A stretch of DNA of 64,000 bases from contig BPJG01000001.1 in the NCBI GenBank assembly GCA_026004495.1, positions 432,527 to 496,526 of the forward strand, read 5' to 3'. Position 1 is the stretch's first letter. Each line of letters opens with the position of its first letter. Under the pieces are notes generated by a model. The model ran no database searches and was not told the origin of the DNA. It saw nothing but the letters and a program-made list of their open reading frames with translations. Positions 18,420 through 36,207 of the stretch are shown here, piece after piece. A program made the position numbers and the translations under genes. The DNA comes from Candidatus Parcubacteria bacterium (GTDB lineage: Bacteria; Patescibacteriota; Minisyncoccia; UBA6257; HR35).

Positions 18420-18690
18420 GTTCAACCTCTATTATTTTTATCCATCGTTCTTTTTTGTTAAAACCAAGCTTTCTTTTTGTTTTAAATTTTACTTTGCCAT
18501 AAATTTTTGAATGAATAGTGAAATCCTTTCCCATAAAAGTATTATTACCGGGATAAAATTTAGTTCCTCGTTGACGAACAATTATATCTCCTGGTTTAAC
18601 AATTTCACCGCCAAATTTTTTAATTCCCAATCTTTTACTAATAGAATCTCTGGTTGATTTTGCTGCTCCTGATGCTTTTTTTTCTGCCAT
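18403..18690 (-). CDS. rpmA: 50S ribosomal protein L27
   Basis: '[45 protein letters not shown]' is the L27 signature. Confidence 0.93.
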
Positions 18691-32255: not shown

Positions 32256-33974
32256 ATGTCAAAATATATCTTTATTTGTGGTGGGGTAATGTCAGGAGTA
32301 GGTAAGGGTATTGCTACTTCTTCAATTGCAAAAATTTTATCTTGGTATGGTTATAAGGTAACTTGTTTTAAGATTGATCCTTATGTCAACGTTGATGCTG
32401 GAACAATGAATCCTTTAGAACATGGGGAAGTTTTTGTTTTGAAAGATGGAACTGAATGTGATCAAGATATGGGGCATTATGAAAGATTTTTAAATCAAGA
32501 ATTGACAAAAGTAAATTATATGACAACTGGTAGTATTTATCTTTCACTAATTCAAAAAGAAAGAAGTTTATTTTTTAATGGCAAATGTGTTGAAGTTGTT
32601 CCTCATGTTCCCTTGGAAGTGATTGACAAAATTAATCAGGCTAAAAAATTAACTAAAGCTGAAATTGTTATTACTGAAATTGGCGGTACTGTAGGTGAAT
32701 ATCAAAATTTATTATTTTTAGAAGCAGTAAGAATTTTAAAGCTTAAACAGCCAAAAGATGTTATTTTAGTTTTAGTTAGTTATTTACCCTATCAAGGAGA
32801 GGGAATGGAAATTAAGACAAAACCAACGCAATATGCTATTCGAGCTTTAAATTCTGCTGGTCTTCAACCTGACTTTGTTTTAGCTCGAGCTCTATTTCCT
32901 TTAGATGATAAAAGAAAAGAAAAAATTTCTTTTAATTGTGGTATAGATAAAGAAAATATAATTTCTGCGCCAGATGAAAAAATAATCTATAAAATTCCTT
33001 TGAATTTTGAAAAAGAAAAAATAGGAGAAAAAATATTGAGGTTATTTAATTTAAAATCAAAAAGTAAAAAATCAAAAGATTTTTTGAAATGGCAGAAAGA
33101 ATTAAATAAAATAAAAAAAATAGATCAAGAAATTAAAATAGGTATTGTTGGCAAATACTTCAAAACAGGTGATTTTATTTTGGCTGATGTTTATATTTCA
33201 GTTATTGAAGCGATTAAACATGCAAGTTGGTTTTTGGGTTATCAGCCAAAAATTGTTTGGTTAAATTCAGAAGAATATGAAGTAGATAAAAAAAGAGTAG
33301 AGGAATTAAAAAATTATCATGGAATTGTTATTCCTGGTGGTTTTGGCTCTCGTGGTGTTGAGGGAAAAATTTTAGCGATTAAATATTGTCGGGAAAATAA
33401 AATCCCTTTATTTGGTTTATGTTATGGTCTTCAACTTATGATTGTTGAATTTGCCAGGAATGTTTGTGGTTTGAAAAATGCTCAAACAACTGAAGTAAAT
33501 CCTAAAGCAAAAAACGCGGTAATTGATATTTTAAAAGAGCAAAAGAAATTATTAAAAGAAAAACTTTATGGTGGAACAATGAGATTGGGTGATTGGGAAT
33601 GTGAAATAAAAAGAGGAACAATTGCTTGGAGAGCTTACACAGAACTTAGCAGAACTGACGCAGAATTTAGCAGAAGATATCAAAAAAATGTTTCTTTTAG
33701 TTCTACGTTTGGTCAGCCTTTTCCGCGTGTTTTGAAAGTTGTAGAAAGACACAGACATCGTTATGAAGTTAATCCTAAATATCATAAAATTTTACAAAAG
33801 AATGGTTTTGTTTTTTCGGGTACATCGCAAAATGGTTTATTGGTTGAAATTGGAGAATTGTCACAAAATATTCATCCTTTCTTTTTGGGAACTCAATTTC
33901 ATCCAGAATTGAAATCAAAATTTTTACATCCCCATCCATTGTTTCTTGAATTTATTAAGCAGAGTACAAAATAA
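32256..33974 (+). CDS. pyrG: CTP synthase carrying a lineage-specific in-frame insert
   Basis: 'YIFICGGVMSGVGKGIATSSIAKIL' P-loop; GATase 'GLCYGLQLMIVEFA' (catalytic Cys); 'VERHRHRYEVN'. A GC-richer repetitive segment at 33640-33728 lengthens the region between 'MRLG' and 'ERHRHRYEVN'. Confidence 0.95.
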   Translation: MSKYIFICGGVMSGVGKGIATSSIAKILSWYGYKVTCFKIDPYVNVDAGTMNPLEHGEVFVLKDGTECDQDMGHYERFLNQELTKVNYMTTGSIYLSLIQKERSLFFNGKCVEVVPHVPLEVIDKINQAKKLTKAEIVITEIGGTVGEYQNLLFLEAVRILKLKQPKDVILVLVSYLPYQGEGMEIKTKPTQYAIRALNSAGLQPDFVLARALFPLDDKRKEKISFNCGIDKENIISAPDEKIIYKIPLNFEKEKIGEKILRLFNLKSKSKKSKDFLKWQKELNKIKKIDQEIKIGIVGKYFKTGDFILADVYISVIEAIKHASWFLGYQPKIVWLNSEEYEVDKKRVEELKNYHGIVIPGGFGSRGVEGKILAIKYCRENKIPLFGLCYGLQLMIVEFARNVCGLKNAQTTEVNPKAKNAVIDILKEQKKLLKEKLYGGTMRLGDWECEIKRGTIAWRAYTELSRTDAEFSRRYQKNVSFSSTFGQPFPRVLKVVERHRHRYEVNPKYHKILQKNGFVFSGTSQNGLLVEIGELSQNIHPFFLGTQFHPELKSKFLHPHPLFLEFIKQSTK

Positions 33975-34208
33975 AGTATTATTTATCTATGGTTAAAATA
34001 TAATTATTAAAATAAATAATTCTTGAATTATTTTTGTTAATTTTTGATAAATTATAAATTAATAATTTAAATAAATTTTCTTAGCTACAAAAAACTTTTT
34101 AAATCTAAGTCAAGTTATAAAAAGAAATGGATTTTTTAATTTATAATAGAAATACAATAAACACAATAATTAAGATAATTTAAATAATAATATAATTTTT
34201 AAAAATTT

Positions 34209-34874
34209 TTATTTAATTTCTTCTATTACTATTTCATCTCCTAAAATATAGGCAATTATCGCTTTATTGTCTTTGGTAAGGGTGAAATAAACATAATCAT
34301 AAGGCCCATATATTTTATCATTTAGTTGAACATAGTATTTATCATCTTTTTTATATTTTATATATACGTATTTGCCAGTTTTTTCTTCTAATAAACCCCA
34401 TATATCTAAATATTCTTTAAATATAAAATCCTTCCCTAACAATAATTTATATTTTCTTATTTTTGCTTCTTCTTCCTTAGTTTCCAATTTTATATCTTTA
34501 CCTTTTATAGGAAATACTTTATTATCTTTTTTCCTTTTAAATGTTAATAATCTAAGTGTATCCTTATTTATTAATCTTCCTCTAAATTCTCCTGTATTAT
34601 TATTATTTTCATCATATTCTTTAAGGATAACAGTTTTAGTCTTAAGATTAATCTCTCCTTCTAATTTTAACCATTTTCCTACTTTATCATATTTATATCT
34701 TCATTCTATTTTATTACTATTATCTTTTTGAGATAATTCAAGAGTAATAGGATAATTAGATATTTTTAGATTATAAGTATTAGTAATTTTATTAGTAGTT
34801 ATTGTTTGAGCATTAGAAAATAAGGGAGAAAGAATAAGAGAGATAAGGATTAAAGAGATTATTAGTTTTTTCAT
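34209..34874 (-). pseudogene. Secreted hypothetical protein interrupted by a single in-frame TGA (pseudogene, read-through or sequencing error)
   Basis: ATG at 34874-34872 gives 'MKKLIISLILISLILSPLFSNAQT...' (signal peptide). The same frame continues through a TGA at 34703-34701 into the 92-aa ORF 34209..34487. Confidence 0.5.
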
Positions 34875-35250
34875 TATTATTTATTGTTTTTTTAAGTTTT
34901 TGACTATTTATATTTAAGTCTTAAATATTATTTATAATTTATTTTAATTTTTTTTTACAAGATTATAAAAATATTTATGAAAATAAATATAAAAAATATT
35001 TTATTTTTTAATTATTAATTTTATTATTTTTTATTATAATTTATTTAAGATATTAAAGTTTTAAAAATTTATTAAATTTGATAAAGGATCTTAAATTAAG
35101 AAATGAAAACATTGTTGTTTTATTTTAATAATTAAATTAAATACCTAATAAATAAAATAATTACAGATATATTAAAATATTATTTTTTTAAAAAATTATA
35201 TCTTAATATCTATTAATCATAACTTTATAATTTTTATTAAATTTTACTAA

Positions 35251-36207
35251 ATGTATTTAATAGGAGATGTGGGTGGTACAAAAACAAGGCTAACAATTAT
35301 TGATAAGATATATATTAATTCAAATCAATCATATAGATATCTTAAACAAAAGACAAAGTTTTTTAACACCCCTCAAAAATACGAAGATTTTTTAGGATTA
35401 ATTTTTAAATTTCTTAAGAAATTGAGAAAAAGAATTGACAAAGTTTGCTTTGGATTTGCCGGTAATTTCGATTTAGATAAAGAAAAATTAATCTACTCTC
35501 CAAATTTAAAAGATTATATTGATAGAGATTTAAAGAAAGATTTAGAGAGGATTTTACATTCGTGTCAATCCGTGGTTTTAGAAAATGATGCTGCCTTAGC
35601 TGGTTTAGGTGAAGCATATTATGGAGCAGGAAAAAATTTTAATGTTTTTGGTTATATTACTTTAGGAACAGGAGTTGGAGGAGTTAAAATTATAAAACGC
35701 GAACTAATGCAAACAGGACGCGAACAGATGCAAACTAAATTTTTTATTGATGATAATGTTTTTGGTTTTGAGCCAGGACATTCATTTATTTTGATATGCG
35801 GAATAAACGGAAGCGGACACAGAATGAACGGAATAAACGGAAAAGATGCTTCCGCAAATTCCGTTAAGTCTGTGTTAAGTCCGTTATATCAGATAGAAGT
35901 TGAAGAGATTATTGGCGGTAAAAGTTTGGAAAAGATTTTTAAGAAAAAACCAGAAAAAATAAAAAATAAAAAATTATTGGATGATATGAGTAAAATTTTA
36001 GCAATATTTTTAATAAATGTTTCAATTTTTTGGTCTGTTGATAAAATTATTTTAGGCGGAGGATTAACAAAAAGTCTAAATTTTAAAAAATTAAATTTTT
36101 ATGTTAATGAATTTCATCCTTTACCAATTAAAATTAAAATAATAAAATCAAAATTAGGAGAATTCGCAGGTTTGTTTGGAGGATTAAATTATATAAAAAA
36201 TTTTTAA
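35251..36207 (+). CDS. glk: Glucokinase (Glk family) carrying a GC-rich in-frame insert
   Basis: 'MYLIGDVGGTKTRL' (compare E. coli Glk 'LVGDVGGTNARFA'); 'LGTGVGG'; 'GFEPGHSF'; 'IILGGGL'. The segment 35696-35890 contains direct repeats and an imperfect palindrome. Confidence 0.8.
   Translation: MYLIGDVGGTKTRLTIIDKIYINSNQSYRYLKQKTKFFNTPQKYEDFLGLIFKFLKKLRKRIDKVCFGFAGNFDLDKEKLIYSPNLKDYIDRDLKKDLERILHSCQSVVLENDAALAGLGEAYYGAGKNFNVFGYITLGTGVGGVKIIKRELMQTGREQMQTKFFIDDNVFGFEPGHSFILICGINGSGHRMNGINGKDASANSVKSVLSPLYQIEVEEIIGGKSLEKIFKKKPEKIKNKKLLDDMSKILAIFLINVSIFWSVDKIILGGGLTKSLNFKKLNFYVNEFHPLPIKIKIIKSKLGEFAGLFGGLNYIKNF

Follow-up and report, generated by a model that had tools for sequence, protein, structure and literature searches.

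How short repeated units that are richer in G and C than the surrounding genome come to stand in frame within a housekeeping gene is the question raised by a locus of Candidatus Parcubacteria bacterium KatS3mg094, which we have analysed in a continuous stretch of 64 kb (hereafter the window, 25% GC). On its forward strand, an open reading frame (ORF) of 318 residues (35251..36207, GC 0.27) encodes a ROK-family sugar kinase ('glk'), which matches the entry KatS3mg094_454 (P0001, on a 634-kb contig) at 100% and which hosts two unusual segments. One of them, following the GTGxGGxKI motif at a position termed site C, is a tandem repeat, and the other, following EPGHSFxLI at site D, is a long palindrome. 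We consider it probable that both were inserted in frame in a lineage-specific manner and consist of GC-rich repeat DNA with short units, derived from families that are dispersed among hot-spring Parcubacteria.

Two repeat segments in a sugar kinase

The assignment of the host gene is based on a Pfam match to the ROK domain (PF00480, 4.4e-22), on its relatives in the PDB, which are ROK glucokinases and N-acetylmannosamine kinases, and on the features of an actin-like ATPase fold, with DxGGT, ENDA, GTGxGG and EPGH forming invariant columns in an alignment of 28 orthologs. Relatives originate from other hot-spring metagenome-assembled genomes (KatS3mg096, KatS3mg097 and bacterium HR35) and from JGI and Logan assemblies. 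Because its conserved catalytic motifs are intact, the kinase gene looks functional.

The palindrome at site D, located by repeat search and RNA folding, extends over 104 nt (35790..35893, forward strand) and has the organization of an interrupted palindrome or long hairpin. Its left arm (35798..35842) consists of 9-nt units of the CGGAA type with one CAGAA unit and includes a direct repeat of 30 nt (CGGAATAAACGGAA, at 35799 and 35829), the apical loop reads AAGATGC (35843..35849), and in the right arm (35850..35887) the inverted units TTCCG-N4-TTCCG precede a direct repeat of 11 nt (GTTAAGTCTGT / GTTAAGTCCGT). The core arms (35817-35842 / 35850-35875) are 81% complementary, with the outer arms nested around them. 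The pattern CRGAA-N4-CRGAA is found four times in the window, where 0.28 occurrences are expected, and all four lie within this element, in line with an earlier note on this DNA, which had described an imperfect palindrome built from CRGAA pentamers with 4-nt spacers. The RNA of region 35790-35895 is predicted to fold into a single hairpin of five short stems that are separated by regular internal loops of 3-4 nt, with a minimum free energy of -39.7 kcal/mol compared to -18.5 +/- 3.3 kcal/mol in shuffled sequences (z -6.5; 0 of 200 shuffles equally stable). The folding of the RNA proposed in the note thus predicts a stable hairpin, which is the most stable 100-nt segment across the 64 kb and which is predicted to retain -18.5 kcal/mol at 65 C and -11.9 kcal/mol at 75 C. 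The description of the segment as much GC-richer than its surroundings holds with respect to the genome mean (0.37-0.48 in the insert vs 0.25) but not within the gene, where other, conserved parts reach 0.43. A search of Rfam returned no match in the kinase region and elsewhere only tRNAs and sub-threshold 'miRNA precursor' matches, the latter being what any long hairpin yields. An intein, an intron and a known riboswitch or small RNA were rejected as identities in view of the size of the element, its open frame and the lack of a match.

The reading frame is maintained through site D, where two of the six frames are free of stop codons and the other four contain them. The coding block (35797-35892, forward strand) encodes residues C183-Q214 (CGINGSGHRMNGINGKDASANSVKSVLSPLYQ), and the translation of the ORF reproduces the peptides of both segments as they had been written in the earlier note. 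In our analysis, we assume that the insert is translated. That it is instead an assembly chimera, or that it is skipped by translational bypassing as it occurs in gene 60 of phage T4 and in the byp elements of Magnusiomyces mitochondria, appears hardly credible. Such an explanation could draw on the presence of the glk palindrome in a single assembly (the P0001 cluster has one member on one contig) and on its stable hairpin rich in GGA codons, but the length of the insert is a multiple of three and its frame is free of stops, so that bypassing is not needed, and homologous or analogous in-frame inserts are found in independent NCBI, JGI and Logan assemblies.

In an AlphaFold2 model of the window kinase, which was built on the ortholog alignment and has a mean predicted local distance difference test score (pLDDT) of 88, residues 188-207 at the center of the palindrome show a pLDDT below 50 and form the loop that connects strand 179-183 with strand 212-216, the palindrome-encoded segment thus being predicted as a disordered hairpin tip. 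The same stretch aligns with the Cys-rich loop after the GH motif in solved ROK kinases (e.g. 2qm1), and we take site D to be the position of the Zn-binding loop next to the sugar site of classical ROK kinases. A CxCGxxGCxE zinc motif after the GH motif is a feature of ROK kinases, in place of which the orthologs of the window kinase have a Cys-free hairpin tip of 10 residues. The sole cysteine of the window kinase, Cys183, is encoded by the site-D element. The location might suggest an adaptive role, in which the inserted loops would provide the kinase with an interaction surface or a means of regulation. This would agree with the maintained frame, with the similarity of the palindrome peptide in two proteins and with the insertion at the aligned position of the loop to which we ascribe zinc binding. 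Still, the segment is of low complexity and predicted to be disordered, the orthologs either lack it or contain unrelated sequences in its place, and the likeness of the peptides follows from the homology of the DNA in combination with the availability of only two stop-free frames. We thus regard an adaptive protein feature as very unlikely.

The segment at site C (35697..35739, forward strand) contains two copies of a 21-nt unit, as originally noted, and encodes residues R150-K163 (RELMQTG REQMQTK). Its 18-nt cores (35697-35714 / 35718-35735), placed 21 nt apart, are 89% identical, and a direct reading of the full 21-mers finds 16 of 21 positions to be the same. With up to three mismatches, the pattern ACGCGAACWRATGCAAAC matches twice in the window, both times at site C, where 0.06 matches are expected. 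Each 21-mer is in turn composed of two half-units of 10-11 nt (ACGCGAACNN / ATGCAAACNNN), so that four of them can be distinguished in total (ACGCGAACTA / ATGCAAACAGG / ACGCGAACAG / ATGCAAACTAA). The tandem repeat does not show a significant RNA fold (z -0.8). In the AlphaFold2 model, it lengthens an existing β-hairpin formed by strands 142-153 and 160-166.

The protein alignment of the 28 kinases and a DNA alignment with the sister genome KatS3mg096 place both segments in an evolutionary context. Most of the orthologs comprise about 265-280 residues and contain neither the site-C nor the site-D segment. Across the set, the length ranges from 259 to 353 residues, with the variation clustered at four sites, namely site A after the second helix, site B after the sequence LEKIL, and sites C and D. 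The nearest ortholog, the KatS3mg096 kinase (P0002), shares 77% identity over aligned residues and carries no insert at C or D. Instead, its site C reads a plain 'NKK' and its site D is occupied by a tip of 10 residues (QSKTYDVLPF), with flanking DNA that is near-identical to the window. Judged from these alignments, both segments are lineage-specific insertions and not conserved domain features. Latter alternative, which the earlier note had named as the observation that would speak against an inserted element, is rejected by the lack of both segments in most kinases. The same loops have received other sequences in orthologs that are more distant. At site D of P0033, we find a palindrome of 190 nt with nine (A/G)CGAAC units and inverted copies thereof (-75 kcal/mol, z -5.5), site C of P0015 and P0039 contains CCGAAT/ATTCGG palindromes, and the hairpins of P0032, located at sites A and D, are very rich in GC, with a content of up to 0.7. 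By this comparison, related lineages carry different repeat inserts, acquired independently, at the same four loops of the kinase.

Related units in reverse gyrase, CTP synthase and other genes

A second copy of the glk palindrome is found in the sister genome KatS3mg096. A 60-nt folding scan of its locus (L001) flagged the region 18541-18600, which is located inside the gene of a reverse gyrase (L001 15792-19490), an enzyme whose presence fits a thermophilic lifestyle. The insert (L001 18522-18602) is homologous to the palindrome of the kinase. In forward orientation, the alignment of the latter with L001 18515-18615 contains 51 identical nucleotides out of 71 with a single gap and is collinear through the 30-nt duplication of the arm (score 40 vs 14.1 +/- 2.2 in the null distribution, z 11.6). 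In reverse orientation, 42 of 53 positions are identical without gaps (score 51, z 14.8), an alignment in both orientations being expected for palindromes. Since these z-scores refer to mononucleotide shuffles, which destroy the repeat structure, we added a test of the positions outside the CGGAA/TTCCG cores, 22 of 33 of which agree compared to an expectation of 31% (P = 3e-5). Both copies share the same reading frame and encode similar peptides (NGINGKDASANS vs NGTNGNNSSAHS). Among 15 aligned reverse gyrases, this first insert (INGTNGNNSSAHSDSSAFVSAPSDSSQ) is confined to KatS3mg096, and it is also absent from the enzyme of KatS3mg094 itself (P0171). A second insert, equally exclusive to the KatS3mg096 enzyme, opens with three AYGCGAAC units and goes on with ATCCGGGTAA units. 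The GCGAAC units of site C recur in this second insert (17 of 19 nt, z 6.1) and at kinase site A of P0039, which is built from ATGCGAAC/ACGCGAAT units. The ATCCGGGTAA units in turn recur in frame in mnmA (50 nt, 88%), within an insert of about 95 residues.

An element of a different kind resides in pyrG, the gene of CTP synthase (33639..33733, forward strand of the window). It contains tandem RCAGAAYT units of 10-11 nt with a period of 21 nt, followed by a degenerate inverted copy, and constitutes a net insertion of 29 residues (TELSRTDAEFSRRYQKNVSFSSTFGQPFPRVL) into the PyrG of the window, for which PyrG of HR35 displays a nearly clean empty site (AWKAY-KTT-KVLERHRHRYEV). In KatS3mg096, PyrG contains 36 extra residues, the difference corresponding to one 21-nt unit (three instead of two). 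The RCAGAACT units are homologous to two site-A inserts, one in the kinase of KatS3mg096, where they run in opposite orientation (40 nt, z 15), and one in the P0003 kinase (z 15-16 for the site-A matches overall). They also extend the C-terminus of RsmI in KatS3mg096. The earlier note had described the elements in pyrG and glk as built alike and had suggested that they belong to a family of small mobile or structured elements. Former description fails, as the pyrG element contains CAGAA every 10-11 nt and no match to CRGAA-N4-CRGAA, with a unit period that compares to 9 nt in the glk palindrome. As for the latter, there are indeed dispersed in-frame repeats in unrelated genes, but glk and pyrG carry different elements, which do not align significantly (z 1.2-2.6). 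Also, the pyrG element does not form a significantly stable hairpin, either in the window (z +0.2) or in the sister genome (z -1.3). The only link between the two consists in the presence of a CAGAA(C)-type unit beside CGGAA units in both the reverse gyrase element and the glk palindrome, and the two palindromes belong, at most, to one loose superfamily whose units have a SGAAY core. An antisense ORF of 77 residues across the pyrG element (33552-33785, minus strand; ...SSAKFCVSSAKFCVSS...) merely follows from the repeat having stop-free frames and does not represent a gene.

Arrays of similar units are also encountered outside of coding regions. The ATCCGGGTAA units form an intergenic array of 360 nt on L001 (13160-13510), with about 25 units in two inverted halves. 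Located between divergent genes encoding MurJ-like and PAP2 proteins, this array constitutes a giant imperfect palindrome, in which about 12 CC(C)GGAT units are followed by about 13 ATCCGG(G) units. Units of the same CC(C)GGAT/ATCCGG(G) type are intergenic in another genome as well (L002 6867-6925 and 8469-8527). Further arrays with the units GAAGCT, TTAGGGAT, ACGGAT and CGCAGA(C/T) are located at L001 6049-6246, 3415-3494, 14074-14153 and 20309-20388, with others at L004 4651-4730 and 5651-5730 and at L002 6752-6831. Some of the arrays on L001 flank tRNA genes (L001 6121-6193 and 3624-3695). The largest intragenic element that we have seen is the composite insert in mnmA of KatS3mg096 (L001 20440-20780, minus strand), with about five units of the CGCAGAC type, then three units of 24 nt that encode SGNHPGN and have ATCCGGGTAA cores, and then about five inverted units of the GTCTGCG type. 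A near-perfect intergenic hairpin with a 16-bp stem (GGATGTGCGACGTCC...GGACGTCGCACATCC, -34.5 kcal/mol) is found at L001 1296-1355, just upstream of a partial third copy of its sequence.

The presence of large intergenic arrays between divergent genes and beside tRNA genes could point towards a function of the nucleic acid itself, either as a thermostable mRNA element involved in ribosome pausing or transcript protection or as a series of phased sites for a DNA-binding protein. Such a function would be in accord with the exceptionally stable fold of the glk palindrome, which is predicted to persist at 65-75 C, with unit cores of 5-7 nt that are common to genomes whose proteins are about 50% identical and with a spacing of 9-12 nt that is near one helical turn. 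The intergenic arrays and the sharing of cores between divergent genomes speak most strongly in its favor. It is at odds with the lack of the element in the closest ortholog and most others, with its variable position, the different unit types found at the same loop in different lineages and the polymorphic copy number, and with the absence of a significant fold in the pyrG and site-C elements and of any match in Rfam. We consider a functional nucleic-acid structure as the origin of the inserts to be distinctly unlikely.

Proposed insertion and growth of modular repeats

In the explanation that we favor, the building blocks are units of 9-12 nt, which consist of a SGAAY core of 5-7 nt (CGGAAT, CAGAAC, GCGAAC or CCGAAT) and an AT-rich linker. 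These units occur in direct arrays of short length, many of which continue into an inverted array, giving rise to a long interrupted hairpin. The glk palindrome represents a composite element with a length of about 75-100 nt and the order [CAGAA-type unit][CGGAA unit][CGGAA unit] - loop - [TTCCG][TTCCG][inverted CAGAA-type unit], in which 30 nt of one arm are duplicated, and the insert in the reverse gyrase of KatS3mg096 is a second copy of it. We propose that such elements spread as non-autonomous DNA of a selfish or neutral nature, for which hairpin-mediated template switching or recombination might be responsible or else an enzyme acting in trans, and that the arrays subsequently grow and shrink by slippage. 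Their mobility is inferred from the pattern of presence and absence and from homology, and among the conceivable modes of movement we favor hairpin-mediated template switching, or else recombination of one array with another, with slippage as a later step, since the elements are modular, without recognisable ends or target duplications, and variable in their number of units. Every intragenic copy that disrupts the frame or the fold would be removed by purifying selection, so that those remaining look as if 'designed' for in-frame insertion. The intragenic copies are found at loops or the tips of β-hairpins, in a stop-free frame that yields a polar, disordered peptide, and the observed steps in unit number of 9, 21, 24 or 30 nt keep the frame. 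In-frame copies are the only ones able to survive in essential genes. The suggestion that the elements either tolerate in-frame insertion or are selected for it is thus borne out to the extent that lineage-specific in-frame inserts occur in housekeeping genes, but nothing indicates a selection for them, and the kinase most likely works despite its inserts and not because of them.

Several observations weigh against this explanation. The insertion is not clean, since the segment at site D replaces about 10 ancestral residues. No target-site duplication is recognisable in the AT-rich flanks, and no direct repeat flanks site D. At the empty site of KatS3mg096, a perfect palindrome of 9 bp is already present (GTAAGACAT-ACG-ATGTCTTAC), which would allow the local growth of a hairpin. 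The density of unit clusters is very uneven, since KatS3mg096 has 21 in 21 kb and L002 has 6 in 16 kb, compared to 3 in the 64 kb of the window, the last being the pyrG element and the two sites of glk. The CGGAA palindrome is found once in the window, with two known copies in total. No transposase or other mobilising gene was identified, a systematic search for which was not made. Finally, the unit cores are conserved between genomes in which protein identity is only about 50%, and this could reflect a function of the cores.

Part of these observations would equally be expected from a local origin de novo, in which slippage and intra-strand template switching from a small palindrome have generated the element in place and in which the likeness between loci reflects convergence, since in a genome of 25% GC no microhomologies other than GC-rich ones would form stable pairings at high temperature. 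The 9-bp palindrome already present at the empty site of KatS3mg096 could have served as seed, the element is rich in internal direct repeats of 9, 11 and 30 nt, sister genomes differ in the number of pyrG units, no second CGGAA palindrome exists in the 64 kb and no target-site duplication is visible. Convergence, on the other hand, does not account for the collinear match of 51 out of 71 nt to the reverse gyrase, which spans the duplication of the arm and the positions outside the cores, and it predicts neither the 40-nt match between the pyrG element and kinase site A nor the 50 nt of 88% identity between the second reverse gyrase insert and mnmA. Because of these long collinear matches, we regard a purely local origin as rather unlikely. 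Slippage probably explains the later growth of arrays, and the local scenario is thus in part contained in the proposed insertion of dispersed repeats.

The searches for additional copies covered the 64-kb window, as a subset of the KatS3mg094 genome, and the loci of relatives. Within the window, no further CGGAA palindrome was detected with the arm at up to three mismatches, with the pattern CRGAA-N4-CRGAA, in paired clusters of CRGAA/TTCYG or in a cluster scan of GC-rich 7-mers. The palindrome is thus unique within the window, and the family becomes visible only through other genomes. A scan of the window for inverted repeats returned mostly AT-rich noise, and the output of Tandem Repeats Finder was similarly uninformative. 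Since the motif is not over-represented across the window, its identity as DNA-uptake sequence was rejected. A scan of contigs with the pattern CGGAA-N4-CGGAA..TTCCG-N4-TTCCG retrieved, among the matches listed, mostly unrelated GC-rich genomes. The only match from Parcubacteria among them, L080 2655-2700 of Candidatus Parcubacteria S40-23 (54% GC), is a perfect palindrome of 18+18 nt (GCGGAAATGACGGAAGTC-AG-GACTTCCGTCATTTCCGC) in frame in an ORF of 231 residues. It is separate from the glk element but carries CGGAA-N4-CGGAA units like the element of the window, in a relative that is much richer in GC. With a tighter pattern, a scan of metagenomes revealed two palindrome families in organisms of 0.5-0.65 GC with a style of units resembling that of glk, for which no homology to the glk element is demonstrable, as the search pattern itself forces most of the match. 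The first, from soil metagenomes, comprises near-perfect palindromes of about 110 nt with ACGGAACAA / ACGGAAATNN units on contigs of about 52% GC (L126, L129, L133, L134, L137, L147, L156, L160, L162), which are intergenic in both contigs that were checked (L126, L133). The second (TCAGCGGAACAGCGGAACGAGCGGAAAACAAACGTTCCGGTCTTTCCGCTTTTCCGCTGA) is found on more than 20 contigs of about 60% GC. Scans of viral contigs returned only unrelated hairpins and collagen-like NPGN repeats and nothing that would point to a phage as vector.

Beyond the insertion of dispersed repeats in the kinase, the data are suggestive of a more general phenomenon, which we put forward tentatively and regard as possible rather than probable. 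Thermophilic Parcubacteria would harbor an undescribed, modular superfamily of SGAAY units in direct and inverted arrays that spreads from locus to locus and from genome to genome by a hairpin mechanism without a classical transposase and repeatedly colonises the same surface loops of essential enzymes, with cores that may in addition provide phased sites for protein binding or thermostable structural sites. So far, repeats of this kind have been found in the sugar kinase, CTP synthase, reverse gyrase, MnmA and RsmI.

Genomic setting and known repeat systems

The neighborhood of the kinase shows additional peculiarities. Between pyrG and glk extends a region of 1.3 kb (33975-35250) that is extremely AT-rich, with 60-nt segments of down to 2-7% GC, and that contains only a doubtful ORF of 92 residues on the minus strand (34209-34487). 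At the loci L001, L004 and L209 of relatives, which are syntenic to this one, a gene of 144 codons is found immediately upstream of glk, and on L209 pyrG was not located at the position equivalent to the window. Since the relatives thus differ upstream of glk, the pyrG block seems to have been rearranged into its present place. The reverse gyrases of KatS3mg094 (P0171) and KatS3mg096 are only 50% identical, compared to 86% for PyrG and 77% for the kinase, which suggests paralogy or the exchange of one of these genes. In bacterium HR35, the gene of dCTP deaminase (L004 7316-9148) encodes 610 residues instead of the 188 found in relatives and, in light of a faint LAGLIDADG match, probably contains an intein.

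In the open-access full-text literature, we found no description of elements such as those in glk and pyrG for either Parcubacteria or the candidate phyla radiation (CPR). The closest analogues are, in the first place, the Rickettsia palindromic elements (RPEs), small palindromic repeats inserted in frame into many unrelated genes and translated as additional peptide, where each family encodes a conserved peptide (PMC10969869). Both are palindromic and reside, at positions compatible with the fold, in frame in unrelated metabolic or housekeeping genes of reduced AT-rich genomes. As in RPEs, the glk element is predicted to form a stable hairpin, here of 104 nt, and its family encodes related peptides in the ORFs of kinase and reverse gyrase. 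RPEs, however, are unitary sequences of about 100-150 bp with many alignable copies per genome, whereas the elements of the window are modular arrays of 9-12-nt units, with one copy of the palindrome in the 64 kb and one in the sister genome, and the host belongs to Candidatus Parcubacteria and not to the Rickettsiales. Compared by description and not by alignment of sequences, the glk element thus works like an RPE without being a member of the group.

Next in likeness are the GC clusters of yeast mitochondria, which are palindromic, mostly non-coding, either single or in tandem and optional between strains, and which are also found in VAR1/rps3 and rRNA genes where they change the size of the product (PMC4464245). 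They share with the inserts described here the character of GC-rich palindromes in an AT-rich genome, their optional presence between strains and their occasional placement in frame. Yeast clusters are organellar and belong to other sequence families, whereas we deal with a bacterial chromosome and many housekeeping genes, at a GC content of only about 0.4-0.5 (up to 0.7 in P0032), which makes the relationship one of analogy. By this comparison, the window elements are members of neither group.

MITEs, the miniature transposable elements with inverted repeats, occasionally give rise to in-frame intragenic copies (PMC10969869). Together with the bacterial BOX, ERIC and BIME/REP repeats, they resemble the window elements in being non-autonomous and hairpin-forming. 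The arms of site D are mutually inverted out to 35790-35798 / 35885-35893, as would be expected for terminal inverted repeats. Neither a target-site duplication nor a defined terminal inverted repeat or a parent insertion sequence was found, with no systematic search for transposases in the window or the loci. BOX and BIME have a comparable modular build with a variable number of internal units but are extragenic. Repetitive extragenic palindromes (REPs) and BIMEs are described as extragenic, with a palindrome of 20-40 bp and GTAG or CGTC tags (PMC3733652), which distinguishes them from the intragenic glk element of 104 nt that lacks such a tag. PARCELs are coding repeats with dyad-symmetric DNA and variable number for which a shuffling within genomes as well as between them has been proposed and that encode an amphipathic domain of 25 residues in ORFs of unknown function, often membrane proteins (PMC2996958). 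They thus constitute a protein domain of their own, whereas the window elements are short inserts in the loops of conserved enzymes.

Finally, Plasmodium falciparum contains low-complexity inserts, AT-rich simple repeats encoding Asn and Lys, in the surface loops of housekeeping proteins, which probably arise by slippage and would be largely neutral. These are similar in being lineage-specific, repeat-derived and disordered loop inserts in conserved enzymes of an extremely AT-rich genome, but they are neither palindromic nor common to different loci as DNA.

The inserts would explain much of the variation in protein length within the CPR, as exemplified by the range of 259-353 residues in the kinase, and they call for caution in annotation, where such segments should be taken neither as domains nor as errors. 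With its loops being struck independently by different elements, the kinase offers a tractable system for studying the movement of such elements and the tolerance of proteins towards them. In-frame palindromes in essential genes have hitherto been regarded as a peculiarity, seen in Rickettsia and yeast mitochondria, to which hot-spring Parcubacteria would add a third type of reduced, AT-rich genome, with elements of a different and modular build. Their recurrence suggests that the remodeling of protein loops by selfish hairpin DNA may follow a general route. If the proposal of a SGAAY superfamily is correct, latter would be a bacterial counterpart of both the GC clusters of yeast mitochondria and the RPEs.

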